The notes: generated by a model from the sequence alone, not told the origin. Counted from the first letter of the stretch, positions 10,558 to 64,000 are shown. The stretch: DNA of 64,000 nucleotides from Dictyostelium discoideum (GCA_000004695.1 CM000153.2:5386250-5450249), one strand, 5' to 3'. Translations and numbers: made by a program.

Positions 10558-10799
10558 ATTAAAATTTTTTAAAAAAAATAAATAATAATAATAATAATAA
10601 AAAACTGAAAAAAAAAAAAAACTGAAAAAAAAAAAAAACACACAAATTAAATTATAATACAACAGATACACACACTCCCCTTCCCCCTTACTCCCTCCCC
10701 CCCTTCCTTTTAGTTTTATGTTTTTTTTAAAAATGTATATATATATTTATTTATTTAGTTAATTTTATTTTTATAAACGAAAAAGTAATTTGTTTTGAT

Positions 10800-31652: not shown

Positions 31653-32827
31653 TTTATTTTATTTGTATGTATATATATTGTATTTGAAGAAAAAAGAAAG
31701 AGATAATTAATTTACTTTTTTTTTATGGAATATAAAAAATTGATTTGAAAAAAAAAAAAAAAATTTATTTGAAAGAAAAAAAAAAATAAAAGAAAATTAA
31801 ATTTAAAAAAAAAAAAAAAAAAAAATTAAATTAATAATTAAAATTGTAATTTGGGTCACAAGTGATTTATTTTTTTATTTTTTTTTTATTTATTTTTTTT
31901 TTTTTGAAACTTAATGGGGTTGTGTTGGGTTAGTTGAAAATCATATGATCAAAAGAGATGTTGACCAATAAGATTTAACTGTGATTTTTAAAATTTTTTC
32001 AAATAAAAATTTACTTTATTGTGTGCCATTTTTTTTTTTTTTTTTATTTTTTTTATTTTTTTTTTTTTTTAAGTTTTTTTTATTTTTAATTTTTTTTTTT
32101 TTTGATTTATTTATTTATTTATTTTTTTTTTTTTATTACAAATAATAATTATTATTTGTAATAAAAAAAATAAATATAAATTATGGCAAAAAATTGGGTT
32201 TTAGTTTTAATGGTTAATGAAGTTTTTTTTATAAAAAATGGGTTTGAGATAATTAAATGTTGGGTCAATTTATTTTTAAAAAATTAATTTTAATTGGCAG
32301 TGTTTTTTTTTTTTTTTTATTACCCTTTTAAAAATTTCACCAAACTTTTCATTTACCCCCATAATTTTTTTTTTTCAGTGAATTTGATGATTTTAAAAAA
32401 ATATTTTTACTTTTTTTTTTTTTTTTTTTTTTTCAAAAAAAAAAAAATAAAAAAGATGGTTTAAAAATAAACAATTTTATAAAAGTGAAAGATAAAGAGA
32501 TTTCATCTCAAAACAAATAGAACCCTCAAAATTATATTATTTTTTTTTTTCCTAATTTTGGAATTACTGATAAAACAGTTAAACCATCTTTTAATAAAAA
32601 TAAGGTGCACAGTATTTTTTTTTTTTTTTTTTTGTGGGTATTTTTATAATTTTAACGGTATCCAAAATCGAGATTGTAAATAAAAAATTAATTTTAAATC
32701 TACACACCCATCCTCACACACACGCGCATAATAAAAAAAAACAGTTCAGTTTAATTTTTTATTTTATTTAATTTTCCAGTTTTTTTTATTTTTTTTATTT
32801 TTTTTTTTCCTCCAATTATTTTTTGTT

Positions 32828-32923
32828 TTAATTATTTCCACAACACCAAATATTAAACAATAGGAATTTTCTATTTGTTGAATTCTTTAATGTTTTTTTA
32901 ATATTTTCAATTTCTTTTATATT

Positions 32924-32962
<39 letters not shown>

Positions 32963-33734
32963 TGATTGTAAAGTTGGAGAAATTAAAATGATTTTATTAG
33001 TATCAATTAATAAATTCCAATTAATATTAAAATCTATTGAAGTTGATTGAATCTCTTTTAAAATTAATTCCAAAGATTTTAAATCATAATGTCTATATTG
33101 AATGAAAACTAGTGCTTGTTTTGCACTCTCTGAGAAATCACTAAATCCAAATGAAGATTTAAAGAATATTTGATCAGGTGAACTATCAACATAAATTGCT
33201 TTTTCAATTTCTTGATCTGTTAAATCAAATTTAATAATTCTATACATTTGAAACATTTTCATTGATAATCTTTTTGTATAAAAATAAATTACTTTATAAA
33301 ATGATTGAACCAATTCTTTTATTTGAATATTAAATCCTTCCTTTATTGGTAATATAATCTTAATATTTGCACCATCATCATTATTATTATTACTATCTTC
33401 ATTTTTAATATGTTTTATTATTAAAATTTTGGTTTTTTTAATTATTTGAATAACTTGATCTGATTTTAATTTAATTTCTTTTAATAATTCTAAAAATATA
33501 TAAAATTCCAAAATTATTATTATTATTATTATTTTTTTATTTTTTTAAAAAAAAATTAAAAATTAATTTCTAATTACTTTTTTCTTCTTCTAAATTTAAT
33601 TGATTAATATTATTTGATTTATTATATAATTCATCAACATTTAATTTTATAGAATTTATTAAATTGTTTATTTCAATTTCTGTTTCACTCAACTCAAATA
33701 TACTTTCACTATTTTTTAAGTGTGATGTGGTCAT
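32828..33734 (-). CDS. Hypothetical protein (about 272 aa), two exons: complement(join(32828..33489,33578..33734)). Unknown family
   Basis: Exon 1 is MTTSHLKNSESIFELSETEIEINNLINSIKLNVDELYNKSNNINQLNLEEEK, ending AAA A|gtaatt. The 87-nt intron ends tttttag. Exon 2 joins in frame with the 227-aa ORF (...LLKEIKLKSDQVIQ...SFGFSDFSESAKQALVFIQYRHYDLKSLELILKEIQSTSIDFNINWNLLIDTNKIILISP...), which carries a poly-Q tract. The composition is protein-like. I found no recognisable motif. Confidence 0.45.
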
Positions 33735-34188
33735 ATTATTTTTGTTTGATTATAGTTTTTTTTTTTTTTTATTTTTTTTTTTTTTTAGAAATGAAATTAA
33801 ATATATTTTATATATTATAAAATAAAAATAAAAATAAAAATAATAATAAACAAAAAAAAAAAAAAAAAATAATTAAAAAAAAAAAAAAAAATAAATAAAA
33901 TGTCAAAACACCACTTCCACACACTTTAAACAAATAATTAAATTTTTGACATTGTATTTTTTCAAAATAATAATTCCCTTATTTTTTCAAAATAATAATT
34001 TCCTTATTTTTTTAAAAAAATAAAATAATAAATAATAAAATAAAAAATGTAAAGTATTGGTTTGTTGAAAATGTTTGATGAAATTATTTGAAAAAAAAAA
34101 TAAAAAAAAAAATAAAAAAAAAAAAATTAAAAATTAAAAAAAAAAGAGCGCTCTTTGGATGTCAAAAAAAAAATTGTGTTTTTTATTT

Positions 34189-34236
<48 letters not shown>

Positions 34237-34287
34237 CAACAACCATCTAAAAAAACATTTGTTATTATTTTTAAATAAATAAATAAC

Positions 34288-34338
34288 ATGTTGTTTGATT
34301 TAATAAATTCATTTTTAAAGAATGGAATAAATAATAGC

Positions 34339-34370
<32 letters not shown>

Positions 34371-36255
34371 TAATTTTTATAATTCTTTGGAGGATGATGA
34401 TTATTTATTAAATAATCAAACAACCAAAGTATCATTGTATTTGTATTTCTTTATATTTGCATTTATGTTTTTAGTAGTGGATTTAATAATGTTATATTAT
34501 AAACATAGAGAGAATATAGAGTCAAGAGAAACTGATCTATCTTTAAAATTAAATAAAATGTTAATAGATTTTGAAAATGATAATAAAATAAAATCATCAC
34601 CAACAACATCTACTACAACAACTACAATAACACCAACTACTACTTCATCATCACAATTAAGACAACCATCAACACCAAAAACAACAACTAAAACAATTAA
34701 TTCACCACCATCAACACCAAAATCACCACCACCTTTACCATCATTAGAATCAAAACTATTATATAAAGATGATATTAAACAACAATTATCATTAAATGAA
34801 GCAAAGAGTCAAATTGATAGTGCTAAACAACTGGATGAATCATTAAAATATAATAGTTGTATTAAATTATATATAGATGGTATCGAGAAATTAATGGCAT
34901 TATTCTCAAGTTACAACTCTAAAGAATATAGAGATTATATTGATTTTTACCTAAAAAGAGCGGAATATTTAAAAAATGAATTAAAAAAAGGTACAAATTT
35001 AAAATCAATAACTAATTTTAATAATTTTTCAAAAGAATATCAAATAAATTATAATAATAAAATTTTAGAACAGCAACAACAACAACAACAACAATCATCA
35101 TCAACATATAGAAACTCATTAAATTTATCTTCTTCTAAATCAAATTCAACTATAAATAATAGACATTCAATATCTTCATTATCTTCATTAAATTCAACAA
35201 CAGCAACAACAACAACACCATCAAATACTTCAACAATAACAAGTCCGGGTAATAAATATGGATTACAAAAAAGTTTATCATCAACAACATTATCATTAAA
35301 AAAATCATCAAATTCAACCAATTTTCAACAACCTTCACCACCATCAATGGTTATACCAGATATAAAAGGAATTGATAAATCTATGGTAACATTAATTATG
35401 AATGAAATTATGGATAGAAAGAATCCTGTTAAATGGGATGATGTGGTTGGATTGGATAAAGTTAAACAATCATTGATGGAATCAGTTATTTTACCAAATT
35501 TAAGACCCGATGTTTTCACAGGTTTAAGGGCACCTCCAAAAGGTTTATTATTATTTGGTCCACCAGGTAATGGTAAAACAATGATTGCCAAAGCAGTTGC
35601 CTATGAAAGTAAAGTAACATTTTTTAGTATCTCTTCAAGTTCACTAACTAGCAAGTATGTAGGTGACGGTGAAAAATTGGTACGTGCATTATTCGCTGTT
35701 GCAACTCATTTTCAACCTTCAATTATTTTCATTGATGAAATTGATTCATTGCTAACTGAACGTTCTTCAAATGAATCTGAGGCATCTCGTCGTTTAAAAA
35801 CAGAGATTTTAGTTCAATTCGATGGTGCTAGAACAAATGGTGATGAAAGAGTATTGGTAATGGGTGCAACTAATAGACCAGAGGATTTGGATGATGCTGC
35901 ATTACGTCGTCTCGTTAAACGTATTTATGTTGGTTTACCAGAACTTGAAACTCGTTTACAAATTATTCAACATTTACTAGTGGGTCAAAGACATTCTCTA
36001 ACCAAACAACAAATTAATTCACTAGCTGAAGTAACTCAAGGTTACAGTGGTTTTGATTTAGCTGCACTTTGTAAAGATGCTGCTTATGAACCAATTAGAA
36101 GATTAGGTATAGGTATTAAAGATTTAGAATTAAATGAAATCTCTCTTATTAGTTTTAAAGACTTTGCTAATAGTTTAAAACAAATTAGACCATCAGTAAC
36201 TTCTCAATCTTTAAAATCTTTTGAAAAATGGAATCAAAAGTTTGGAACTATTTAA
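34288..36255 (+). CDS. Spastin-like AAA ATPase (N-terminal hydrophobic hairpin, MIT domain, AAA cassette), 655 aa
   Basis: TM hairpin [27 protein letters not shown]-like helices [39 protein letters not shown]: [58 protein letters not shown] (Walker A), [12 protein letters not shown] (Walker B), and [14 protein letters not shown]. The linker and pore-loop residues match the spastin/katanin meiotic clade. Confidence 0.85.
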
Positions 36256-36440
36256 AAAAAAAAAAAAAAAAAAAAAAAATAACAAAGTAATAGGATCGAT
36301 AAAATTAATTAATTTTAAATTTATAAAATTATTATTATTATTATAGTTTATTTTAAAATAACAACAATATAAAATTTGGTAATCAATAAATAATAAAGAT
36401 TGATTGTAATATAATTTTTTATTTTTTTTTTTTAAAAAGT

Positions 36441-39229
36441 TTAAATTTTATTTTTATTTAAACCAACTTTTTCTAATTTTCTTTTTAATGTTTGTTGTAA
36501 CATTTTATTCTTTTTATTTTTATAAAAGTAATAAATAATACAAACTATAATGACTGTTAAGAAAGCAACACCACCAATGACGATACCAGCGATTTGACCT
36601 TTAGTAAGAGATGAATTATTTGAACAAATTGAATTTTCAGAATTACTGGATGCTGCTCTTTGATCAATAATGATTGAAAAGTCTGGATCAATAATAACTT
36701 TATTCGAATATTGTGGAATTGTAATTCCAATAAAACTTTGAGTTGAATATGAATTTGATATTGGTTTCATTGTTGAATCTAATAATATATTTTCAATTGA
36801 TTGAACTTTTGAATCGATAATTGCACGTTTAATAAATCTACCATAGACTGAATGATTATCTACTTGAATCTTTATATAATTTGAGTCATCACCACTTGTT
36901 GTATTACCAAATTCTTTTGATGAACAAATATCATCATTGTTTTCACTTGATATTAATGATGCTGACATTACAAATTGTAATGTATTTAATGATTGTGAAA
37001 ATGGATATTTATTAATTTCGATTGTATATTTAATTGATGATGGATTCATTATTAATTGTTGATTTGCAAATTCAACTATACTACTTTTATTAAACCATTC
37101 AATTGTTGCACTAATATTTGTAATAGTATTTGTATTTGAATTAACAATTGATGTTTCATATAAATTTTTATTACTTTCGAGTGGTGTAAATATCCATTTA
37201 TCAAAAGTATATAATTTAATTTGTTCACCTTTATAATTTAATTCTCTTAATGATACTAATGATATTAATGATTTAAATATTATTTTTGATATATTTTCAT
37301 CACTATCACTACTATTATCAGGTGATGGAATTGGAATTTCAGTTGATGGTGTAGTTGTATTTGTTGATGGTTGTGGTACTATTATAATTTGAGAAGTACA
37401 AGTTAAACCAATAAATGGTGGATAACAAATACATCCACCGTCTTTACAAATACCTTGGTTTGAACCTCCACATTCTGGATTACCTTGACATTTTTGTGGT
37501 GGGTTTGTTGGTATTGGACTAACTGTTGGTATTGGTGTTGTGGTTGGGGTTGTGGTTGGTGTTGTAGTTGGGGTTGTAGTTGGTGTTGTAGTTGGTTCAA
37601 TTGGGTCTGTATAATTAAAAAAGAATAGTTTTGGTTGAACTATAAATTCATTTGATTCCATAGATGTTGAAGAACTTGTAATTTTAATTGTAAAAGATTG
37701 ATTTGTTGATCTAATATTTTCAATATAAATAAAACTATCAAAAATTGTTTTTGGAATAAATGATATATAATTTGCACCATCACCACCATCAGAGTATTTT
37801 AAAAGTACTCGAATTGAATTAATATCTCCAATGTTTCCATATGTTAACATTCTACCATAAATCATTAAATTACCACCATAATTTGTAATTGAATTGGTTG
37901 ATGAGATATATGGTTGATTATTTGTAAAAATACTTGTATTTATTGAATGATCAAAACCTAAATTTATAAGTGATTGAGTTGGATAACCACTATAATAACC
38001 TCCATTATTTATAAATCCAAAAACTGATAAAATGATACCATTCATATTACCAAAACCGATTGGTACAGTAGTTGTACATACGAATTTTGTTTTATATTGA
38101 AATGGTGTTGAATTTGTTGAAATACATTTATGTATATCTAATTCTAATGTTGTTAAATAAACAATTGGGAATTGATTATCTCTAATACCTGTTTCTTGAT
38201 CTTCACATTCGAATTCAAATGTAATACTTCTATCACCTAATGATCCAACATCTAAACTACTTTTACTACTTTTAAATGATAAAAGCATTGGTCCTGTTGA
38301 ATCATTAATACCACCACTACAAATGTTATTAATTGGTGATACTAAAACTATTGATGTATCATTTAAATAGTTTATAAATGGATTAAATTGTGATGACTCT
38401 GGATCTTCAGATAATTTAATATAGGAAGCTTGATTATTAAAAGTATCATATAAAATTACATCTGTGATTTCATAAGGTTGTTGAATACATTGTAATTGAT
38501 TTTCTTCAATATAAATTTCATATTCACCATTCCATTTATCACCTTTGATTGCTTTTGATGGTTCGATTGTAAAATTATGAAGTGAAGAATCGATTGTACC
38601 TCTAACTGAAATATAACCATTCTTTAATCCATTTATATTATCTTGAATAGTAACTAACCAACCAAATGTATCTTTTGGTAAATTTGATGGATTCTTTATA
38701 ATTTTACTAAAAATTGGTCCATATATATCAATATCTATGAAAAAAAAAAACGGTTAATAAGAATTTATGTATCAATATCTGTGAAAAAAAAAAAAAAATA
38801 ACATACTTTTTGAAATTAAATTTAATTGTGCAGATTGTGGTAGTTCAGAACTAAAGATTTTAATTTCTTTTGAAAAAGTTAAATAATAATTAGCAATACC
38901 AGTCATAGTGTTTGCAGGAATATTAAACATTACTTGATATCTATTATCTACCCATTCTGCGAAAATGTAATTTTCTTTAATTTCTCTATTATTTGAATTA
39001 ACTACTGAATTAAATTGATTTTCAGTTAAAGTTTTTGGATCCATTAAACTAAAACCAATTGATAAATCTTTATAATTATTAATATTTGTAAAATTAAAAT
39101 AAATAATATTTGAAACTGATTGATTTGTAACATGAACATTATTATATAAAAATGTAATATTAACTAAATCTTGAAAATTAAATTCTAAAAAATAAATATA
39201 TATATTTTAATAAAGGAGAGAAAAATGTT

Positions 39230-39275
<46 letters not shown>

Positions 39276-41362
39276 AAACATACCATTAATTTCAACAGAA
39301 GGTAATCGAAATGACTTTTGATTTAAAAATGAAATTGGTAAACCAATGTAATATAAATTAACCATACCAGAAAATGTTAATACTTTCATTAATTTTCCAT
39401 TTGAATCTTTTCCACCTAATACACCATCATAAATGGTTTCCCAAATTCCATGATAATAATCACCTGATACAATATCGTTTGGTGTTAAAGTAAAGGATGA
39501 TTTATCGGTATCACCTCTATATCTAATAGATTTAATTGGATATGGACCAATAGTTGATAATGTAAATTGAAGTAAAAATTTAAAGTTACCTAAATAAACA
39601 GAGTTGAAATCTTGAATTTTTCCTACGATTGTTTCATTATATGGTACGATATTGATTGGTTTGAATTCAATGTATTTGGAAAAAGAAATACTTATAAAGG
39701 TAAATTTCATATAATCAATAAAATATTGATATGTAATTGTTGAAACTGTTAAATTAAAATTTAAATTATTTCCTTCAGTGAATGCATAAGGGAATGGTTC
39801 AGCATAATTATTAAATTGATCAGTAGCATCATAATGTATAATTTTAAAATCATAATCCTTATTAAAATTAAGACTAACTGTATAAGTTGTTATTGTTTTA
39901 TTTTCGAAGATTGGATATGTAATATTATCTGATAATGGTAAAAATGGAGCTATTTTTTTTTAAAATGAAAAATTGGATTAGAAATTTTTTATTATTAATT
40001 ATTATTAATTATTATTATTATATTTTATATTTACTAGTAATAGAATTTGTAAAATCATAACTATTGTAATTAGGTTGACCATTTTGATAAAATAAAGAAT
40101 ATGAGCCAGGAAGATAGGAAAGACAAGATGCAATGAATTCAATATTACCTAAACTTCCTAAAATTGGTGTGACGATAAAATCAGTGGAACCATAAAATGA
40201 TAATTGAAAGCTTGGCATATTTGTGATATTTGTTTTTGTAAGTTTGAATTTAATAATTTGACCATAAAATAATGTCATTGCTATTATATCTGTTTGGTTT
40301 GGATATAATGTAAAATCTGTAATTTCACTATCAAGAATAGTTGGTGTTGTTTCTTTTTAAAAAAAGATGATTTTTAAAATAAATTTTAATATTATTCTTA
40401 TTATTTATTATTTATTATTTATTATTTATTATTTATTTATTATTTATTATTTATTATTTATTATTTATTATTTATTATTTATTATATATTATATATTATA
40501 TATTATTTATTATATTTTATTGATAAATACCATATTTGTATGTTATATTAAATGAAAGTTCATCGCCGTTAATTGGTAAAATAACTTTCCAATTGGGTGT
40601 TGTTTGAGTTCTAACAAAAGTATTAATGAATTTGATTCTATATAAATATGTATCTGATAATTTGACAATACTATATGATGGTGCGTCTGATAAAATTATA
40701 GGTCTTGGTAATCCATTTAATTTGAAAACTGCTGAATAATATGACATTTCATTGTATGTTATATCATTAATTAATGTAACTGATAGTTTTGATACATCAA
40801 CAACTTTTTCATTTTAAAAAAAATAAAATGTCATGGTGGTAAAGAAATTATAATTAAAAAAAAAAAAAAAAAAGTTAGGAAAAATCAAATAGAGATTTTT
40901 TATATTTTTTATTTTCATTTTTTTTGAAAATAAAAAATATAAAAAAAAAATAAAAAATAAAAAAATTGAATAATTACAGTTGCACGAATAATTTAAATTA
41001 ATATCAGATTCTGGAAATCCTGGAATTGTTACATTTGAAGTATAGGTTCCTTTTGAAATTTCAATTTCAAAGTTGTAAATAGCAGAATTTTCATTTTTAA
41101 CAATTGAACTATACACAAAAAAACTTTGAGAATCTAAAAATACTTGAATTGGTGGACCAGTTTGATCAAGAATATTGATAACTAAAATATTAATTGTAAT
41201 CTTACATTTAAGATCACCAATAGGTGATGGATAGGTATCTAATTCCAATTGGGAATTAATACATGAAGTTTCATACTTTTTTTGACAACTTACACAACAA
41301 AATAAATAAAAAATAAAAAATATAAAAACAAGTAAAGATCTTTTATTTATTGTTGTTGCCAT
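36441..41362 (-). CDS. Large type I transmembrane surface glycoprotein (about 1437 aa) of a multigene family. Six exons: complement(join(36441..38734,38807..39184,39284..39949,40035..40352,40531..40803,40978..41362))
   Basis: A signal peptide (MATTINKRSLLVFIFFIFYLFCCVSC) sits in the 5' exon. All five introns (72-178 nt) have GTAAGT/GTATGT/GTAAAT/GTATTT/GTAATT donors and (t)ag/aag acceptors, and every exon length closes the phase with the flanking ORF-track frames. The last exon has a (TTPTTTP)n stalk, an EGF-like module CQGNPECGGSNQGICKDGGCICYPPFIGLTCTSQ, the TM helix IAGIVIGGVAFLTVIIVCIIYYFY and a basic tail. The architecture resembles the Dictyostelium IPT/EGF adhesion (Tgr-like) families, but I cannot assign the family. 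Confidence 0.6.
40380..40500. repeat. (TTATTTA/TTATT)n minisatellite inside intron 4 of the large glycoprotein gene
   Basis: The periodic repeats tatttattatttattatttatt lie within the 40353..40530 intron. Confidence 0.7.
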
Positions 41363-48801: not shown

Positions 48802-49059
48802 AATAAAATATTTGTTTTTTTATTTTTTTTTTAATCAATTATTTTAATTTTTTTTAAAAGATTCCATAAAATTGAAGTTATTTTTTTATAAAAAAAAAAA
48901 AAACATATAAAATAAAAAAAAGAATAATAGAAATAAAAATTTAAATATATATTTTTTGACCTTTAATTTTTCAAAAAAATCTTCCAGACGACCATTTGCA
49001 AATGGTAGAAATTATTGAAACGAACCAATATTGCTTTCATTTTAAAAATTTCCAAAAAA

Positions 49060-49141
49060 GTAAGCTTGCCCGAGCTGGTCTAAGGGGTTGCATTAAGGCT
49101 GCAATATCATTGATACAAGGGTTCGAATCCCTTAGCTTACA
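49060..49141 (+). tRNA. tRNA-Leu (anticodon AAG), type II with a long variable arm, 82 nt
   Basis: GTAAGCT acceptor stem / AGCTTAC 3' half. D-arm GCCCGAGCTGGTCTAAGGGG. Anticodon stem TTGCA/TGCAA with loop TTAAGGC (anticodon AAG). Variable stem-loop ATATCATTGATA. T-arm with B box GGTTCGAATCC. Discriminator A. Confidence 0.85.
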
Positions 49142-49172
49142 AATAATTTTTTCAAAAAAAAAAGAGATCAGA

Positions 49173-49570: not shown

Positions 49571-49686
49571 TATAACGCAATTATTAGTTGCTTCTCCTTG
49601 AGCTTTGAAATGAAATAATTTTTTTTTTTTGAATTTGAAATGAAATAATATTTTTTTTTTTTTTTTTTTCAGAAATTTTCAAAAAA

Positions 49687-49768
49687 GTAAGCTTGCCCGA
49701 GCTGGTCTAAGGGGTTGCATTAAGGCTGCAATATCATTGATACAAGGGTTCGAATCCCTTAGCTTACA
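49687..49768 (+). tRNA. tRNA-Leu (AAG), second identical copy in a tandem duplication (coordinates +/-1)
   Basis: The same 82-nt sequence as copy 1. The upstream 20 nt (tttccaaaaaagtaagc) and the downstream ex-B box are duplicated too. Confidence 0.8.
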
Positions 49769-49800
49769 ATTAATTTTTCAAAAAAAAAAAAAGAGATCAG

Positions 49801-51327: not shown

Positions 51328-56396
<5,069 letters not shown>

Positions 56397-56425
56397 TTAA
56401 TTTATTTAAAAAAAAATACTTTTGA

Positions 56426-56460
<35 letters not shown>

Positions 56461-56494
56461 TAATAAATTTTAAATAATCTCCATAAAATTAATA

Positions 56495-56588
56495 GGTAAT
56501 TTATGTAATGGTAAGGGTGTTACTTGTCCAATTCAACAAGGTAATTATTCAACAACAACTATTAATCAAGAAATACCTGAAAATGAAC
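56495..56588 (+). pseudogene. Short fragment copy of the ML-domain gene at 62247..62702 (inverted orientation)
   Basis: The stretch translates to GNLCNGKGVTCPIQQGNYSTTTINQEIPENE, against GNLCDGMGVTCPIPQGNYSTTTINQEIPENV in the intact gene. It has no start or upstream exon and is flanked by AT-rich DNA. Confidence 0.45.
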
Positions 56589-56934
56589 TTGAAAGTTTAT
56601 ATATATTTTTTTTTTTATATGGTATAAGGGTGGGAATTTTATTATATTTTTTCAAGTTTTATAATTTATTTTTTTAAATATTAATAAAATAGAATCTATT
56701 AAAAACATTACTGGTACCAGTAATACTATTTTTTAAAATAAAAAGAAATTAATAAAAAAATTCATTAAAAAAAAAAAAAAAAAAAAAAAAAATAAAAATA
56801 AATTAAAAAAATAAATAATGTAAATAACTTCTCAAACTAGCTTCTTTCATCAATTTCAATTGTAATTATTTATTTTTTAAATTTTTATATATTTTTTTAT
56901 TTATTTATTTATTTATTTATATATTTTTTAGTTT

Positions 56935-56970
<36 letters not shown>

Positions 56971-57687
56971 ATAATAATTTGAAAAATTTTAATCATTATC
57001 AACACTTAAGTTGTCTGAACAATCCGAATCAGAATTACGCCTCATCACCTTGATCGGCACCATCATTAAATTTATTTATTGAACCGGGAAAAAAAAACCT
57101 ATAAAATGTTAAAATATAATTAGTTAAATTAAATTTTAATAAAAGTTTGTAATGCTATTTTATAAATTAATAAAAATTATTAAAAAATAAGATTAATAAT
57201 AACAAAAAAATAAAAAAAATAAAATTTATAAAATTTATAAAAAAATGAAACTTATTATAAAAAAAAAATAGCATTTTTTATTAAAATTTAATTAATACTA
57301 AAAAATAAGAAAATATATTAGAATTTTTAAATTTTATTAATTCGGGGTTATTTTTTTTTTAAAAAATAATTATAATAATTATTAGAAAATAGGAATTTTT
57401 ATAAAAAAATAAGATTATTTATAAAAAATGTAACCTATATTATTTTTTAATAAAATATTAAAAAATAAGATAAATAATAATAAAAAAAAAATAATAAAAT
57501 ATATTAAAAATTGAAACATTATATAATTTGTAACATATTTTATTAAAATATAATAAATACTAAAAAAATGAGATAATATATAAGAAGGTAATAAATTTTA
57601 TTAATTATGGTTTTAATAATAAGATGTTTAAATAATAATAAAATAAATTATAAATTGGAAAATTTTATAATATTCAACATATTTTAT

Positions 57688-57718
<31 letters not shown>

Positions 57719-57939
57719 TACATTAATCTTTGAGAAGCAAAGAACTTGGTTGTGAACTCACAAGTGAAATAAAAATTATAATAAATTGTTTCTATATTAA
57801 TTTTTTTATTTTATATATAATTTCTTTTAAAAAACCAAAATAAAAGAATAAAATTATAAAATTAAAAATAAAAGTTGTTTTTTTAATTACATTAGTAAAA
57901 TTTATATGTTTATTATTTTTTTTTTTTTTTTATATTTTA

Positions 57940-58140
57940 TTAAAATAAATAAAATGATTAAAATTACAAAAATAAAAAAAATTATTAAAACGATTTTTAT
58001 TCATCATTTTATTTTTATTATTTATTTTCGTCATTTTATTTATTTTTGTAATTTTAATCATTTTAAAATGATTAAAATAAATAATAAAACTAAAGTGATT
58101 AAAATGACCAAAATAAATAAAAAAACTAAAGTGATTTAAA
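57940..58140. repeat. Cluster of direct and inverted copies of an AAA(A/G)TGA(T/C)(T/C)AAAAT motif, including the perfect palindrome taatcattttaaaatgatta
   Basis: aaaatgattaaaat, aaagtgattaaaatgacc, aaagtgatttaaatgacg and aaaatgaggaaaac, plus reverse-complement copies (gtcattttatttatttttgtaattttaatcatttt), are all visible in the sequence. Confidence 0.6.
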
Positions 58141-58447
58141 TGACGAAAACAAATAAAAATAAAATGAGGAAAACCTTTAAAATAATTAAAAAAAATAATA
58201 AAACTAAAATTATAAAAATGAATAATATGACAATTAATTTAGTTTTTTAGTTTTTTTAAAAAAAAAAAAAAACAACGAAAACACAAAATTATTCTTTTTC
58301 TTTTATTTTTTTTAATTTTTTTATTTTTTTTAGAGGTCCAAAGAGCAAATAAAATGACTAAAACAACAAATTATTCTTTTTAATTTTTTTTTCGCATTGG
58401 CGTGAAGTTAAACTAATATATAACCTATTGAATGATAGTTCATCTTC

Positions 58448-59937
58448 TTATTCTTCATCATCTTCATCATCGACCTCTTCATCACTGACCTCTTCCTCAT
58501 CATCTTGATCATCGAACTCTTCTTCTTTGATACTATTTTCATTTTTACTAAATGTTTGAATTAAAAATACCTCGATTTGACCGATATTTATCTTGTTAAT
58601 CTCTTTAACCATTTTACTGTACTTTACTTTTTTAGCATGCTTTAATAAATTATTGAAAACTGGAAATTTATCTTTTAACAAATTCCAAATAAGATTCCAA
58701 TTATAGAGGAATGCTAATGGATCTCTCCCTGAGGATCTAATAACTTTAGCAATATATGAGAATTTCGTGAGAAGAAAAGTTTTAACGAGTGACTCTAACT
58801 CATCACTCTTGGATACACTAAATTTGGTATTCTCTTTGATGAGTGGTAAAATACGATCTGAAGCTGTGGATAAAGTACCAAGGTATTCTGATTTAACGCC
58901 TTTTTTAGTGGAAAAGGCCCAATCAATAAAGATTGGTTCATTGTTAAAAATGATAATGTTTGATGACCTTATATCTCTATGGATAATACCAATACGATGG
59001 AAACTTTTAATAATATTCAAAACCTAAAACAAGTAAAATGTTTATTATAAGTGGTGAGTAAATATAACAAGACAATTAAATAACAGGTTTACATATTATA
59101 ATTGGCACTTACTTTTATATAAACATCAATACCATGTTTCATATTAAGAACTACACCATAAGGTGAAATTTCTATATAATTTTCACCTTTATATTCATTT
59201 TTGAGATTAACTACACCATTGATATTTCGAGAATTTAAGTATTTAATTGCTTTAACCTCATTATTTTTATATTGATCAAGATATTGCTTGAAAACTCTTT
59301 TTGAATGTAATACAAATATGTAAGATGATGCCCCACCCCCAATATATTTAAAATCTATACTTTCATTAATTGATAAACTTTTTAATAATGAAGTTGGTAA
59401 TTAAATTAACATTATTGTTGTACATGTTAATTAATTTTTTCAATAATTTAAGACCTTCTTTAATTGGAATTGTATCAGAGATTTGAAATTCTGATGGTAC
59501 TAATATATATTTAATAAAAATCATTTCTTTTGGTGCTATAATAAAACAAAACATATAAGATTTTTTAAGATTATTTGTCAAATTATAGAAATTATTTGTC
59601 AAATTATAGAACCATCTAGAGTATATTGTTTTGTTCTGATAATTTTAGTGTCACCAACTATGTGAATATGATGTGGATCTAATGGACAACTTTTAGTCTT
59701 TACCACCCAATCTGAGCTTGTACCTAAAACGTTTTTTTTTGATGAATCATAAAGTTCTAATCTATTAGAATTGATACTTAATTCGTTTAAATCTTCTTGA
59801 AAATCCCTTTCAAGATCATATTCATTTTTTCCAATTTTTTCACAAAATTTATTTATATGATCATCTTCTTGAGTATAATCGCCTAAATTCCAATCTTCAA
59901 TATTAAAGCTATCAACAATCAAACCAGCTTCATTCAT
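58448..59937 (-). CDS. Divergent protein kinase-like gene (about 380 aa). The DFG is replaced by DWA, and there is an acidic D/E C-terminal tail. Proposed structure: complement(join(58448..59023,59113..59354,59613..59937))
   Basis: Exon B encodes the glycine loop DFKYIGGGASSYIFVLHSKRVFKQY and ...YGVVLNMKHGIDVYIK, ending |gtaagt. Exon C encodes VLNIIKSFHRIGIIHRDIRSSNIIIFNNEPIFIDWAFS (catalytic loop HRDxxxxN) and ends in DEEEVSDEEVDDEDDEE. The B-C junction (gtaagt..ttttag, phase 0) is well supported. The A-B junction uses a weak GTTCTA donor and a tatag acceptor, and is tentative. Exon A starts at a real ATG (MNEAGLIVDSF...). Confidence 0.5.
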
Positions 59938-60029
59938 TTTATTATAAAATTATGAATTAGTTAAAGAATCAATTTCACTCTATAGATATACATATATATA
60001 TAATGTTATTAATGTTAATATTAATCTTT

Positions 60030-60323
60030 TTATATATTGTGGTTGATTATAATACTTACATATGGATTTGGATTATTAAGATATTTAATTAAAACCTCAT
60101 TTTTATTTGCTCTTAATTTTTCTTCTTCTAAATTTTGATACTTTTCTTCTAAATTTTGATTCTTTTCTTCTAAATTTTGATTCTTTTCTTCTAAATTTTG
60201 ATTCTTTTCTTCTAAATTTTTAAATTTTTTTAAAATATCTTCTGCTGACAAAACACCAAGTTCCTGAAATAAATATACTAAACTTTCTTTCATTTTGTCT
60301 TCTTTATTTTCATTTTCTTTCAT
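60030..60323 (-). CDS. Hypothetical small coiled-coil protein (97 aa) with four tandem NLEEKNQ heptads
   Basis: ORF MKENENKEDKMKESLVYLFQELGVLSAEDILKKFKNLEEKNQNLEEKNQNLEEKNQNLEEKYQNLEEEKLRANK. It is encoded partly by a 21-bp tandem DNA repeat. It could be a spurious ORF over a minisatellite. Confidence 0.3.
   Translation of the reverse strand: MKENENKEDKMKESLVYLFQELGVLSAEDILKKFKNLEEKNQNLEEKNQNLEEKNQNLEEKYQNLEEEKLRANKNEVLIKYLNNPNPYVSIIINHNI
60105..60232. repeat. 21-bp tandem repeat (ttctaaattttgattcttttc), about 5 copies
   Basis: Directly visible periodicity. It underlies the NLEEKNQ heptads on the minus strand. Confidence 0.8.
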
Positions 60324-60487
60324 TTTTTTATCTTTTATATTTTTTTAACAAATATTTGTTTATTACTTGTAGTGACTGTGTCTTGCAAAAGAAAATTAAA
60401 AAAAAAAATTTTTTATCTTTTAAAAATTAAAATATTAAATTGTTGAAAATGCGCGCAATTTTTTTAATTATATCTGTAAATGGTATA

Positions 60488-60519
<32 letters not shown>

Positions 60520-60562
60520 TTTTTCCATTTTTTTAATTTTTTTTTTTTTTTTTTTTTTTTCA

Positions 60563-61794
60563 ACAGAATCAAGTGAATTTATAGTTCAACCAAAACTTTT
60601 TAATTATACAGATCCAATTGAACCAACTACAACACCAACTACTTCATCAACCACAACACCAATACCAACAGTTAGTTCAATACCAACAAACCCACCACAA
60701 AAATGTCAAGGTAATTCAGAATGTTGAGGTTCAAGCCAAGGTATTTGTAAAGATGGCGGATGTATTTGTTATTCACCATTTATTGGTTTAACTTGTACTT
60801 CTCAAATTCACCATCAACTGAAATTCCAATTCTATCACCTGATAGTAGTGGTGGTAGTAATAGTGGTGATGAAAATATATCAAAAATAATATTTAAATCA
60901 TTAATATCATTAGTATCGTTAAGAGAATTAAATTATAAAGGTGAACAAATTAAATTATATACTTTTGATAAATGGATATTTACACCACTTGATAATTATA
61001 AAAATTTATATGAAACATCAATTGATGTTAATAATACAATTACAAATATTAGTGCAACAATTGTTGAACCAGGTTTAATAAAAGTACTATTATAGTTGAA
61101 TTTGCAAATCAACAATTAATAATGAACCCATCAATTAAATATACAATTGAAATTAATAAATATCCAATTTCACAATCATTAAATACCAATCAATTTGTAA
61201 TGTCAGCATCATTTATTTCAAGTGAAACCAATGATGATATTTGTTGTTTGTCAAAAGAATTTGGTAATACAACAAGTAGTGGTGGTGGTGGTGGTGGTGG
61301 TGGTTGTGGTGGTGGTGGTTGTGGTGGTGGTGGTGGTGGTGGTGGTGGTGGTGGTGGTGGTGGTGGTGGTGGGTGATGATTCAAATTCAATATAAAGATT
61401 CAAGTTAATAATCATTCAGTCTATGGTAGATTTATTAAACGTGCAATTATAGATTCAAAAGTTCAATCAATTGAAAATATATTATTAGATTCAACAATGA
61501 AACCAATATCAAACCTTCATATTCAACTCAAAGTTTTATTGGTATCACAATTCCACAATATTCAAATAGTGTTATTATTGATCCAGACTTTTCAATCATT
61601 ATTAATCAAAGTAATTCTGAAATTTGTTCAAATAATTCATCTCCTACTAAAGGTCAACGATCGCTGGTATCGTCATTGGTAGTGTTGCTCTCTTAACAGT
61701 CATTATAGTTTGTATTATTTATTACTTTTATAAAAATAAAAAGAATAAAATGTTACAACAAACATTAAAAAGAAAATTAGAAAAAATTGGTTAA
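60563..61794 (+). pseudogene. Decayed, inverted partial duplicate of the 3' exon (C-terminal half) of the large glycoprotein gene at 36441..38734. It has frameshifts, an in-frame stop and a (GGT)n expansion
   Basis: Three ORF-track fragments in different frames align colinearly to the parent: STESSEFIVQPKLFNYTDPIEPTTTPT...NPPQKCQGNSEC* against MESNEFIVQPKLFFFNYTDPIEPTTTPT...NPPQKCQGNPECGG; STEIPILSPDSSGGSNSGDENISKIIFKSLISLVSLRELNYKGEQIKLYTFDKWIFTPL against STEIPIPSPDNSSDSDENISKIIFKSLISLVSLRELNYKGEQIKLYTFDKWIFTPL; MNPSIKYTIEINKYPISQSLNT.QFVMSASFIS against MNPSSIKYTIEINKYPFSQSLNTLQFVMSASLIS. The TM and tail (...YYFYKNKKNKMLQQTLKRKLEKIG*) are recognisable at the 3' end. Confidence 0.7.
61270..61376. 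repeat. (GGT)n trinucleotide expansion (~35 units), GC-rich, inside the pseudogene copy. Absent from the parent gene
   Basis: The run ggtggtggtggtggttgtggtggtggtggttgtggtggtggt... encodes poly-Gly (poly-Pro on the other strand). At the same position the parent has SGDDSNY. Confidence 0.85.
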
Positions 61795-62246
61795 AATAAA
61801 ATTTAAACTTTTTTAAAAAAAAAAAATTAAATTACAATCAATCATTATTATTATCACCATAAACCTCATAAACATAATTTTAAATCTCAAATATAAAAAG
61901 TAAAAATTTTCAATAATAAAAAACATTTTTTTTTTTTTTTAAAATTAAAATTAATTTAATATCTAAAAAATTTTTATATTTTGAAAATTCCAATTTAGGA
62001 ATTTTCAAACAAATCTTGAAAATCTGTTAAATAAATAATTGTTAATAGTATTATTAAAAGTAATGAGTTAATTAAAATAAGAAGTATTATTATAGTTAAT
62101 AAATAATTTTATTTGATAAAATTTAACATTTTATCACATTTATTTTTATTATTATTATTAAATATTTTGGTTATATTTATTATTTATTTATTTATTATTT
62201 ATTATTTTTTTTAATTATTATTTTTTTTTTATATTAATTTTGTTTT

Positions 62247-62702
62247 TTATGATTGTGTAATATTCATTTGGACATCAACACAAGTGATTTGCAGATCATC
62301 TTGATCATATAATACAAAATTAACATAGTAATAGCCTTGTGGAACATTTTCAGGTATTTCTTGATTAATAGTTGTTGTTGAATAATTACCTTGTGGAATT
62401 GGACAAGTAACACCCATACCATCACATAAATTACCTTTTAATTTTAAAATTGGTATTCTATCAAATGTAATTGCTAAATATGCTTCACCTTTTGTAATTT
62501 CTTTATTTAAATATCCTGATACTGAAATTATTAAATCTTGCCCTGCAATTGGTTGTTCTGGTGAAAATTCTAATTTTTCAATTTTAAATGAATCACTTGG
62601 ATCACTACAATCACTCCATTCTACTGATTCTATTGGTTTAACAACAATTAGTATTATAAAAAAAAATATTACATAAACTATTTGATTTTGGCTATATTTC
62701 AT
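62247..62702 (-). CDS. ML (MD-2-related lipid-recognition, NPC2/Der p 2-like) domain secreted protein, 151 aa
   Basis: Signal peptide MKYSQNQIVYVIFFFIILIVVKPIES. Conserved Cys pattern (C..C early, ..GNLCDGMGVTCPI.., late ITCVDV). Length and beta-sandwich-like alternation are typical of ML-domain proteins. Single exon. Confidence 0.65.
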   Translation of the reverse strand: MKYSQNQIVYVIFFFIILIVVKPIESVEWSDCSDPSDSFKIEKLEFSPEQPIAGQDLIISVSGYLNKEITKGEAYLAITFDRIPILKLKGNLCDGMGVTCPIPQGNYSTTTINQEIPENVPQGYYYVNFVLYDQDDLQITCVDVQMNITQS

Positions 62703-63069
62703 TTTCTTTTTTTTTTTTTTTTAAAAAATATGATGATAATAATAATAATATAATAATATAATAATAATATAAATGAATGCTGTCTGTAAATTTTTATATT
62801 GATTATAATAAAAAAAAACCCCTTTGGTGGTGATGTTTGAATTATTTTAAATTTTTTTTTTTTTATATTTTTTTTTATTCTATTAAATTTAAATTTATTA
62901 ACCCCAACCACCCTTTATTGTTTAAATAATTTAATAAAAATAATTCAATAATGAAAATCAAATTAATTTTTTTTTAAATAATAATGAAAATATTTTAAAA
63001 ATAAAAAAACCCAACAATTCAAATGATCATTTTTTCATTTTGTAATAAAAATAAAATATATAAATAAAA

Positions 63070-63391
63070 TTAATAGAATAGAATTAGATGAATTTCCTTA
63101 TAAAATTTCAAACAAAAATGGTAATAAAAAATCAATAACATGTCCGATTGAACTATTAGATTTTATTTTTAAATATGGTCCCCAATTTAATAAAGAATAT
63201 TCTGAAAATTTTAAAAAAGAAATTCAAAGTTCAGTTACAAATTTAGCATTATCATTTTTACTTTCAAATAAAAGATTTAAATCATACCAAATTGAAGCAA
63301 ATAATAATAACTTTAAAGATACATTTGATTATATATTTTACAAAATCAAAGAGTTAAATGGTAAATATTTTGATACAAATATTTTTTTTGA
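63070..63391 (+). other. Protein-like open frame without a start codon (possible internal exon of a gene continuing past the window end, or a pseudo-exon)
   Basis: Stop-free non-repetitive frame IELDEFPYKISNKNGNKKSITCPIELLDFIFKYGPQFNKEYSENFKKEIQSSVTNLALSFLLSNKRFKSYQIEANNNNFKDTFDYIFYKIKELNG, followed by a good donor AAT G|gtaaat. I found no in-phase acceptor/ATG partner upstream, so it is not in the ORF track. Confidence 0.25.
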
Positions 63392-63798
63392 GCAATTAAT
63401 AAATTTTGGTCACTTCTTTTTTCCTTTTACAAATTTCTTTTTTTGTTTGAATTTTTTACTTTTTAATTTTTTTTTTTTTTTTTTTTTTATTTTTTTTTTT
63501 ATTTTTTTTTTTCAAATAATTCCGATCAGCACAAAAATCAGATATTTTTTGAAAAAAAAAAATGAAAGTTTAAGAGTTTCGGGAGTCTGAAAATGTGATT
63601 GCTCAAAAAAAAAAAATCAAACATTTAACATTTTATTAATTAATTAATTTTTTATTTTTTTATTTGTTTGTTTGTTTATTTCCTTATTTATTTCTTTCTT
63701 TGTATTTAATTTAATATAAATTTTTTTTTTTATTTTTTTTATAATTTAATTTAATTTATTTTATTTATCTTGTATTCTTGGGTCCAATAATATCTTCC

Positions 63799-63834
<36 letters not shown>

Positions 63835-64000
63835 GAAAGATGATTGATATTTTTTATTATATTTTTTATTAAATTTTTTTATTATTTCTTTATTTTACTT
63901 TTTTTTTGAGAGATGATATTTTAATAAGAAAGAGATTTTATTAGAATTTCTTGGTTGATTTAATTTATTGGTTTAATGAAATTGTAAAATCAAAAAAAAA

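Follow-up and report, generated by a model that had tools for sequence, protein, structure and literature searches.

An inverted, decayed fragment of a neighbouring ComC-family gene, probably an unprocessed pseudogene, carries a GGT microsatellite on chromosome 5 of Dictyostelium discoideum

The stretch of DNA analysed (the window, 64,000 nt) was placed by exact-sequence look-up on chromosome 5 of Dictyostelium discoideum AX4. An inverted partial copy of a ComC-family gene lies in intergenic DNA, flanked by DDB_G0287179 and the ML-domain gene DDB_G0287185, and the intact gene that it resembles, the parent, adjoins the spastin gene. The features that bear on the relationship between the two are as follows.

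34288-36255, plus strand: ORF of spastin, DDB_G0287165 (exact-sequence look-up)
36441..41362, minus strand: parent ComC-family gene, intact and multi-exon, with Pfam hits to DUF7034, DUF7949 and ComC_SSD
36389..37658, minus strand: source segment in the parent, comprising the 3' part of the last exon and about 52-55 nt of 3' flank
56484-56585, inverted: small fragment of the ML gene, 102 nt, 96% identity, 5.8 kb away
60033-60323, minus strand: ORF of DDB_G0287179 (exact-sequence look-up)
60566..61852, plus strand: partial inverted ComC-family pseudogene fragment (the copy), 95.9% identity to 37658-36389
62247-62702, minus strand: ORF of the ML-domain protein DDB_G0287185 (exact-sequence look-up)

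The parent is convergent with the spastin gene, and its 5' limit is approximate, the first-exon boundary at 41362 having been taken from a list of ORFs. Its frame is interrupted solely by two short AT-rich GT..AG introns, both of which are in frame. The last exon encodes DUF7034, DUF7949 (EGF-like) and the ComC supersandwich domain, followed by a transmembrane (TM) segment and a short tail, and all detectable relatives of the protein in a homology search are dictyostelid ComC-type proteins. Neither an AX4 parent protein nor an AX4 model of the copy was among the matches when the parent and a composite of the copy's ORFs were used in protein homology searches. In AX4 the parent has lost its stop codon (TAA to TTA) and so is 6 codons longer than the ancestral stop position would allow. 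The parent locus is single in AX4, is duplicated in tandem in D. citrinum and in ACTFIR, and is amplified in D. dimigraforme. Two further assemblies that bear the name D. discoideum, ACTFIR and ACTFIW, share synteny with the window around the ML gene, and this synteny is broken near 58.45 kb in both. The small inverted fragment of the ML gene at 56484-56585 is of a kind that fits a templated-insertion process.

The copy consists of a T/P-rich linker, the EGF-like DUF7949, ComC_SSD, the TM segment, the tail and about 58 nt of 3' flank. It matches the parent far above chance (E=0), with 1120 of the 1168 aligned bases identical (95.9%), 48 substitutions and 23 indels in blastn and global alignment, and there are long blocks of high identity, one of 124 nt at 98%. 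Once its frame has been repaired, its translation matches DUF7949 (8e-13) and ComC_SSD (2.9e-13). There is no signal peptide in the copy, no N-terminal DUF7035/DUF7034 half and no ATG at the start of homology; the homology to the parent, and likewise to P0001, P0006 and P0011, begins only at the linker ahead of the EGF-like domain. The first-pass annotation had described an inverted partial duplicate about 22 kb from its parent, and both parts of that description hold, since blastn and global alignment pair 60566-61852 (+) with 37658-36389 and the separation measures 22.9 kb. Its boundaries needed correction. The copy had been said to start almost exactly at an internal Met of the parent, which is right to the nearest codon, but homology begins at the GAA that directly follows that internal ATG (..SMESNEF..), and the Met codon itself was not copied. 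At the other end, the supposed limit at the parent's stop, 61794, is simply the end of the copy's own stop codon (61792-61794), and homology runs on for about 58 nt to 61852. A possible 6-nt microhomology, TCAACA, lies ahead of the 5' junction.

The copy contains one nonsense codon and six uncompensated frame-breaking indels, and the frame is never restored. These and the other main differences from the parent's reading frame are listed here.

60725..60727, plus strand: premature TGA, where the parent has GGA for a Gly in the EGF-like domain
60808..60809, plus strand: junction of a 34-nt deletion, a frameshift; the deleted stretch is partly kept in ACTFIR and ACTFIW
60857..60865, plus strand: 9-nt slippage-type insertion, a second AGT/GGT-rich patch
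61069..61070, plus strand: +2 nt frameshift (CC) within a rearrangement, 'TTGTTGAACCAGG', that is common to the ACTFIR copy
61278..61371, plus strand: 94-nt insertion (1 mod 3) that holds the microsatellite, from the global alignment
61281..61370, plus strand: microsatellite (GGT)8 TGT (GGT)4 TGT (GGT)16, 30 units (28 GGT and 2 TGT)
61388..61389, plus strand: +2 nt frameshift (CA), common to the ACTFIR copy
61514..61515, plus strand: +2 nt frameshift (CC), common to the ACTFIR copy
61658..61659, plus strand: +2 nt frameshift (CG) just ahead of the TM segment, in a region deleted in ACTFIR
61792..61794, plus strand: TAA at the ancestral stop position, where the AX4 parent now has TTA

The TGA and the frameshifts that had been noticed on first inspection are thus real features of this DNA. 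The assembly GCA_054883475.1, compared with 52233-64000 of the window, shows 0 mismatches and 6 gaps, all in A/T homopolymers outside the copy, and the copy, all of its frameshifts and the length of its repeat tract are identical there. This assembly is AX4-like and may share a laboratory lineage with AX4, so that it confirms the sequence and does not represent a separate natural population.

No single ORF in the copy spans a whole domain, and the real ORFs fall below the Pfam cut-off; the ORF of 111 aa, for instance, reaches just positions 8-80 of the 222-position ComC_SSD profile and is below the cut-off. Even so, gene models have been placed on the fragment. The automated annotation of GCA_054883475.1 has two: a 111-aa gene (60760-61095), its product listed in NCBI under KAM9941686.1, and, at 61122-61794, a spliced gene of 163 aa that requires non-canonical introns starting within the GGT run. 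Fifteen two-intron versions of the 163-aa model were reconstructed, and the 10 that were looked up by exact sequence gave 0 matches. An 84-aa ORF (61122-61376) has a Gly/Cys run at its end. In AX4 itself, two 'hypothetical protein' models, DDB_G0287181 and DDB_G0287183, probably sit on the fragment, since in the accession numbering these are the two left unplaced between DDB_G0287179 and DDB_G0287185. No literature was found on DDB_G0287181, DDB_G0287183, DDB_G0287167 or the data set SRR24091725. A Logan contig from SRR24091725 is a chimera of parent and copy.

The microsatellite was also apparent on first inspection, and the presence of a long GGT tract stands, but its size had been overestimated at (GGT)35: there are 30 units, 28 GGT and 2 TGT, in the 94-nt insertion. 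By Tandem Repeats Finder, the stretch 61279-61372 has a period of 3 and 31.3 copies, with 95% matches. Sixteen GGT 15-mers occur in the window, all of them in the tract, as against 0 in 100 shuffles, and the GC content of the tract is 65% in a window of 20.9%. Nor does the tract replace an SGDDSNY segment, as had been thought. It is inserted inside SGDD, between the Ser and Gly codons of ..TSGDDSN.., where it arises from the parent's AGT-GGT, and the remainder of the segment follows; GAT GAT TCA AAT is retained 3' of the tract, out of frame, a duplicated AGT precedes the tract and one extra G comes after it. The orthologous tract in ACTFIR, (GGT)11 AGT (GGT)3, lies in frame at the same site and is half as long (15 units to the 30 of AX4). 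The tract therefore predates the AX4/ACTFIR split, and the point interruptions have been gained since.

These observations suggest that the tract was seeded by the parent's AGT-GGT-GAT codons (Ser-Gly-Asp) after coding constraint was lifted, and that it probably grew by replication slippage. In its period of 3, its origin at an existing AGT-GGT-GAT motif, its interruptions and its difference in length between strains, it resembles the birth and expansion of a Dictyostelium trinucleotide repeat, coding or non-coding, from a proto-repeat. It differs from the usual Dictyostelium trinucleotide repeats in that its motif is GC-rich in a genome of 79% AT and in that, being in a dead gene, it encodes nothing. 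The non-coding repeats of D. discoideum are reportedly almost all A/T. Simple repeats, mostly trinucleotide, make up about 11% of the D. discoideum genome (PMC9234386), and indels in this species are known to be prone to slippage (PMC9234386; PMC7466956). The birth of a microsatellite in the copy is consistent with such a repeat-rich, slippage-prone genome.

A possible G-quadruplex motif in the tract was considered and set aside. The G4Hunter score of the tract (mean 1.27, 25-nt maximum 1.48) is below the threshold of 1.5 used in the published map of D. discoideum G4 motifs (PMC6511855). The 26-mer GGTGGTGGTGGTTGTGGTGGTGGTGG occurs exactly at 61293-61318 in the tract. This is the sequence of AS1411, a two-quartet G-quadruplex oligonucleotide. 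The likeness is one of sequence, and a coincidence of a simple repeat.

The age of the copy can be bracketed by comparison with other strains and species. The copy was located in ACTFIR (L004) and in ACTFIW (L005), and orthologues of the parent were reached through spastin homologues in ACTFIR (L006, two in tandem), D. citrinum (L007, two) and D. dimigraforme (L001 and L002). The retained length of the copy is 1287 nt in AX4, a 49-nt remnant plus about 670 nt in ACTFIR, and 54 nt in ACTFIW. The ACTFIW remnant (E=6e-17) preserves some of the 34 nt missing from the AX4 copy, together with a copy-specific CCA-to-CTA change. Both the AX4 and the ACTFIR copy have the +2 CA and +2 CC insertions, two +3 insertions and the TTGTTGAA..CAGG rearrangement, and they also have several substitutions and the GGT tract in common. 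In the 580-nt segment that is present in the AX4 and ACTFIR parents (pA, pF) and copies (cA, cF), 12 sites unite parent with parent and copy with copy (pA,pF against cA,cF), 0 sites unite the sequences by strain (pA,cA against pF,cF) and 0 support the remaining arrangement (pA,cF against cA,pF). From these site patterns (12:0:0) and the shared lesions, it follows that the copy was made, and a large part of its damage sustained, before AX4 and ACTFIR split. There are also 37 derived sites common to all the D. discoideum sequences relative to the D. citrinum and D. dimigraforme outgroups, at which the copy groups with the D. discoideum parents, and the copying event is accordingly specific to the D. 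discoideum stem. Thus, copying took place after the D. citrinum lineage had split off and before AX4, ACTFIR and ACTFIW diverged.

The same site patterns bear on gene conversion between parent and copy, for which 0 of the 12 informative sites in the testable segment give any sign; across the whole copy there is only one site at which the AX4 parent and AX4 copy share a derived state. Nucleotide divergence among the D. discoideum lineages that carry the copy is 3-5%, and the copy lineage has itself diverged by about 3.8%, with some 44 changes over about 1160 sites. If a published rate of 2.47e-11 base substitutions per site per generation (PMC7466956) is applied, this would very roughly correspond to the order of 1e9 cell divisions. 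The copy is therefore not 'young', as the first-pass annotation had it: both it and several of its frameshifts are older than the split of the D. discoideum lineages. Its decay by deletion fits the bias seen in mutation-accumulation lines, where deletions exceed duplications by about 3:1 (PMC9849192).

An ML-protein homologue of D. cf. discoideum (L010) is not syntenic on the side of the copy and is uninformative for the dating. The D. dimigraforme sequence P0002, at first sight a counterpart of the copy, belongs to the tandem array that adjoins spastin, of which it is a degenerate member. A late conversion that added the 5' part of the AX4 copy (60566-60808) was considered and rejected, as that part has no states derived from the AX4 parent and is diverged like the rest.

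Substitutions in the two lineages tell parent and copy apart. Unique changes number 44 in the copy lineage, 19 in the AX4 parent and 12 in the ACTFIR parents, and when derived changes are polarised by the outgroups the figures are 36, 6 and 6. The changes in the parent lineages (AX4 plus ACTFIR) comprise 23 synonymous and 7 nonsynonymous (30 in the coding frame) and 1 in the 3' flank, and this ratio of 23 to 7 indicates that the parents have been under purifying selection. Between parent and copy there are 15 synonymous and 30 nonsynonymous differences, distributed 15/11/19 over the codon positions, with a dN/dS for the pair of 0.52. Once the parent's share is subtracted, the copy lineage appears to be close to the neutral expectation, and its spectrum is balanced, with 12 GC-to-AT and 12 AT-to-GC changes. 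In the 580-nt shared segment, however, the branches that follow the split carry 11 changes in the AX4 parent and 10 in the AX4 copy. The parent has therefore been no slower than the copy since the split, and it is mainly the stem branch, together with the division between synonymous and nonsynonymous changes, that carries the contrast in rate.

Taken with the lesions, this marks the copy as most probably an ordinary dead partial copy of a neighbouring ComC-family gene, a member of a rapidly turning-over family of surface proteins. This reading, that it is an unprocessed (DNA-level) pseudogene fragment in which a microsatellite has newly arisen, can be given a probability of roughly 0.85. A piece of 1.3 kb of the ComC-family gene adjoining spastin would have been copied, in inverted orientation, into the region between DDB_G0287179 and DDB_G0287185, most likely by templated repair or template switching at a chromosome break. 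The donor may alternatively have been a tandem twin of the parent that has since been lost; the copy is marginally nearer to the second tandem parent copy of ACTFIR. The fragment was probably dead on arrival, since it came without a promoter, start codon, signal peptide or N-terminal domains, and it was probably never a complete gene. Since its insertion it has drifted neutrally, acquiring substitutions, a nonsense codon, many indels and large lineage-specific deletions. A scan for sigma-70 promoters and terminators gave no excess over shuffles, though such a model is meaningless for a eukaryote.

Among known systems, the fragment can be compared with unprocessed duplicated pseudogenes, with which it shares a DNA-level partial copy that includes non-coding flank, nonsense and frameshift lesions, a neutral pattern and loss by deletion. 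It differs in being inverted and 23 kb away, not in tandem, whereas the parent locus itself expands tandemly in ACTFIR, D. citrinum and D. dimigraforme. As a piece of about 1.3 kb from a locus nearby on its own chromosome, inverted, intergenic and without poly(A) or a target-site duplication, it is also like the products of templated insertion or template switching (FoSTeS/MMBIR). The resemblance is one of outcome only, as no diagnostic junction microhomology can be established after about 4% divergence, and the junctions gave no diagnostic signature beyond the possible 6-nt TCAACA on the 5' side. Membership of the ComC family (Pfam PF22933 ComC_SSD with DUF7034, DUF7035 and DUF7949) is seen in the DUF7949, ComC_SSD and TM/tail of the frame-repaired copy and in its nearest relatives, which are dictyostelid ComC-type proteins, although the copy is without the signal peptide, the N-terminal DUF7035/DUF7034 half and a continuous frame of that family.

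Two other routes could in theory have delivered such a fragment. A 5'-truncated retrocopy of the parent mRNA would, like the copy, be complete at its 3' end and carry 3' UTR sequence. The absence of introns says nothing on this point, because the copied segment lies wholly within the parent's last exon. However, a processed origin is made highly improbable by the lack of poly(A) at the 3' end of the homology, where the sequence from 61853 onward is ATCACCATAAACC, and by the lack of a target-site duplication at the boundaries, the best direct match being the 7-mer TAATTTT some 25-30 nt from each end. Moreover, tRNA genes are the usual targets of the Dictyostelium TRE retroelements, and the closest to the copy are 11 kb off. 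Inverted duplicates that flank a segment are, on the other hand, the classic signature of an inversion with staggered breaks, and the parent segment and its copy might be the duplicated breakpoints of such an inversion of 23 kb. The break in synteny with ACTFIR and ACTFIW near 58.45 kb and the second small inverted fragment at 56484-56585 could be taken to point this way. Yet an inversion needs one novel junction per copy, and both flanks of the parent segment are ancestral: its adjacency to spastin and its contiguity with the 5' exons are kept in D. dimigraforme, D. citrinum and ACTFIR, and the window is collinear with D. dimigraforme (L001) over 32782-40358. The outgroup synteny thus contradicts the inversion, which can be granted scarcely any likelihood.

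The remaining alternatives allow the locus a present function. That the frameshifts are errors of sequencing or assembly in an intact, expressed paralogue, the outcome on which the first-pass annotation had said its case would fail, could draw on nothing but the general difficulty of assembling repeats. The second assembly is base-identical across the copy, tract included, and the lesions are therefore not sequencing errors; at least five disabling or rearranging indels recur in the ACTFIR orthologue, and a fragment without start codon, signal peptide or N-terminal domains would be no intact paralogue in any case. At the level of the DNA, an error of this kind is excluded by the independent assembly and by ACTFIR, and its probability is close to nil. 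Small protein-coding genes, corresponding to the 84-aa ORF and the 111-aa and 163-aa models, have in their favour the models of GCA_054883475.1, the NCBI entry KAM9941686.1 and the two AX4 identifiers that probably fall in the interval. Against this, the ORFs are out-of-register pieces of one decayed frame and none covers a complete domain, the 163-aa model depends on its non-canonical introns from inside the GGT run, the orthologous region is cut short in another way in ACTFIR and hardly any of it is left in ACTFIW, and the pattern of substitution is neutral, so that genuine genes here are hardly credible. A functional non-coding element, either a source of antisense RNA for control of the ComC parent through RNAi or endo-siRNA or a donor for gene conversion, is also very unlikely. 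The geometry would permit it. The ML gene (62247-62702, minus strand) is transcribed in the direction of the copy, with its end about 400 nt away, and read-through would yield an RNA with about 96% complementarity to the parent mRNA in its 3' part, with long blocks of high identity such as the 98% over 124 nt. In other eukaryotes there are siRNAs that derive from pseudogenes, and an RNAi machinery is present in D. discoideum. However, the 0 of 12 informative sites and the single derived site shared by the AX4 pair across the whole copy tell against exchange between copy and parent, and the loss of about half of the copy in ACTFIR and of nearly all of it in ACTFIW argues against a conserved function. 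A role confined to AX4, in which the copy would tune a ComC surface gene by RNAi, or the G-rich, two-quartet-prone GGT tract would act as a trouble spot for replication or recombination, or both, is one that the sequence would allow but for which the odds are very long. If it were true, the tract could contribute to the unusual indel turnover and to the break in synteny nearby.

The pseudogene reading of the first-pass annotation is therefore borne out, with lesions that are present in an independent assembly and in several cases common to ACTFIR, and with a copy that appears neutral beside a parent under purifying selection. Its further suggestion, that the copy is raw material for the diversification of the family, finds no such backing, as no site in the testable segment suggests exchange with the parent and deletion is removing the copy from the other two strains.

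The finding leaves the current view of Dictyostelium genome biology unchanged, and its uses are local. In at least one D. discoideum assembly, and probably in that of AX4 too, the interval appears to be split into distinct 'hypothetical protein' genes; these fragment gene models should be merged into one and marked as a pseudogene of the ComC family. The series formed by AX4, ACTFIR and ACTFIW, together with a parent polarised by outgroups, provides a clean natural example of the decay of a gene fragment, in which deletions dominate, short slippage is frequent and gene conversion is absent despite 96% identity over 23 kb. The GGT tract is a ready-made polymorphic marker, and shows a GC-rich trinucleotide repeat that was apparently born from three ordinary codons once selection had been lifted.

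Copy number at the parent locus of the ComC-family gene is dynamic. The strains and species compared differ as follows:

AX4 parent locus: one copy
ACTFIR parent locus (L006, 12126-19086): two copies in tandem, differing by 0.8-1.5%
D. citrinum parent locus (L007, 12045-18519): two copies, 1.1% apart
D. dimigraforme parent locus (L001, 1-16655, and L002): at least four copies plus P0002, a degenerate family member

The D. dimigraforme copies and P0002 are placed between spastin and the upstream neighbour. The single AX4 parent has itself changed at its 3' end (window 36441-36460, minus strand), where a derived stop-loss has converted the ancestral GGT TAA to GGT TTA and added six residues (LNKNKI); the earlier stop is retained in the inverted pseudogene copy, in both ACTFIR parents and in the outgroups.

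An open reading frame runs into the pseudogene copy from upstream:

60449-60727, plus strand: ORF from the ATG at 60449, entering the copy in frame and ending at its TGA

Before reaching the copy this ORF traverses T-runs, which are translated as a poly-Phe, signal-peptide-like stretch. The second D. discoideum assembly (GCA_054883475.1) has other lengths for these runs, by 1 and 2 nt, and because the differences sum to 3 nt the frame is kept there. The in-frame joining of the ORF to the copy is probably accidental. A 988-nt short-read contig (L009, Logan SRR24091725_9375), which lacks the GGT tract, is a chimera of the two paralogues produced in assembly: parent-type and copy-type stretches alternate several times along it. 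It is not evidence on transcription.

The copy is not the only inverted fragment in its neighbourhood. A second one matches the ML-domain gene DDB_G0287185:

56484-56585, plus strand: inverted gene fragment of 102 nt, 96% identical to 62345-62446 (minus strand) in DDB_G0287185

The matching part of the gene is an internal coding stretch, translated in the fragment as IKLIGNLCNGKGVTCPIQQGNYSTTTINQEIPEN, and the fragment lies isolated in intergenic sequence 5.8 kb from it. As the second of its sort, it suggests that small inverted templated insertions are recurrent around the copy and the ML gene. Synteny of AX4 with ACTFIR and ACTFIW (loci L004, L005 and L006) stops at about 58.45 kb (window ~58450), and in ACTFIR the block carrying the ML gene and the copy and the block carrying spastin and the parent are on separate multi-Mb contigs, each no farther than about 40-85 kb from the end of its contig. 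Together these observations point to a rearrangement between parent and copy in one lineage.

Homologue searches of a large protein collection, with the parent and the copy ORFs as queries, returned no match closer than 73-81% identity, and the AX4 parent protein was not among the matches. Exact look-ups found, in that same collection, AX4 proteins encoded nearby as well as the 111-aa product annotated on the copy; since known members can thus be missing from the match lists, a protein missing from these lists is not evidence of its absence.

Elsewhere in the window lie two tRNA genes in a direct repeat and a C-rich tract:

49035-49167 and 49662-49794: 133-nt direct repeat, units 93% identical and 627 nt apart
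49060-49141 and 49687-49768: tRNA-Leu(AAG) pair, each inside one repeat unit
10677-10710, plus strand: C-rich tract ctccccttcccccttactccctcccccccttcc, G-rich on the minus strand, G4Hunter -2.64

The C-rich tract gives the strongest G4Hunter signal of the whole window, exceeding the 2.0 threshold of the D. discoideum G4 map (PMC6511855).
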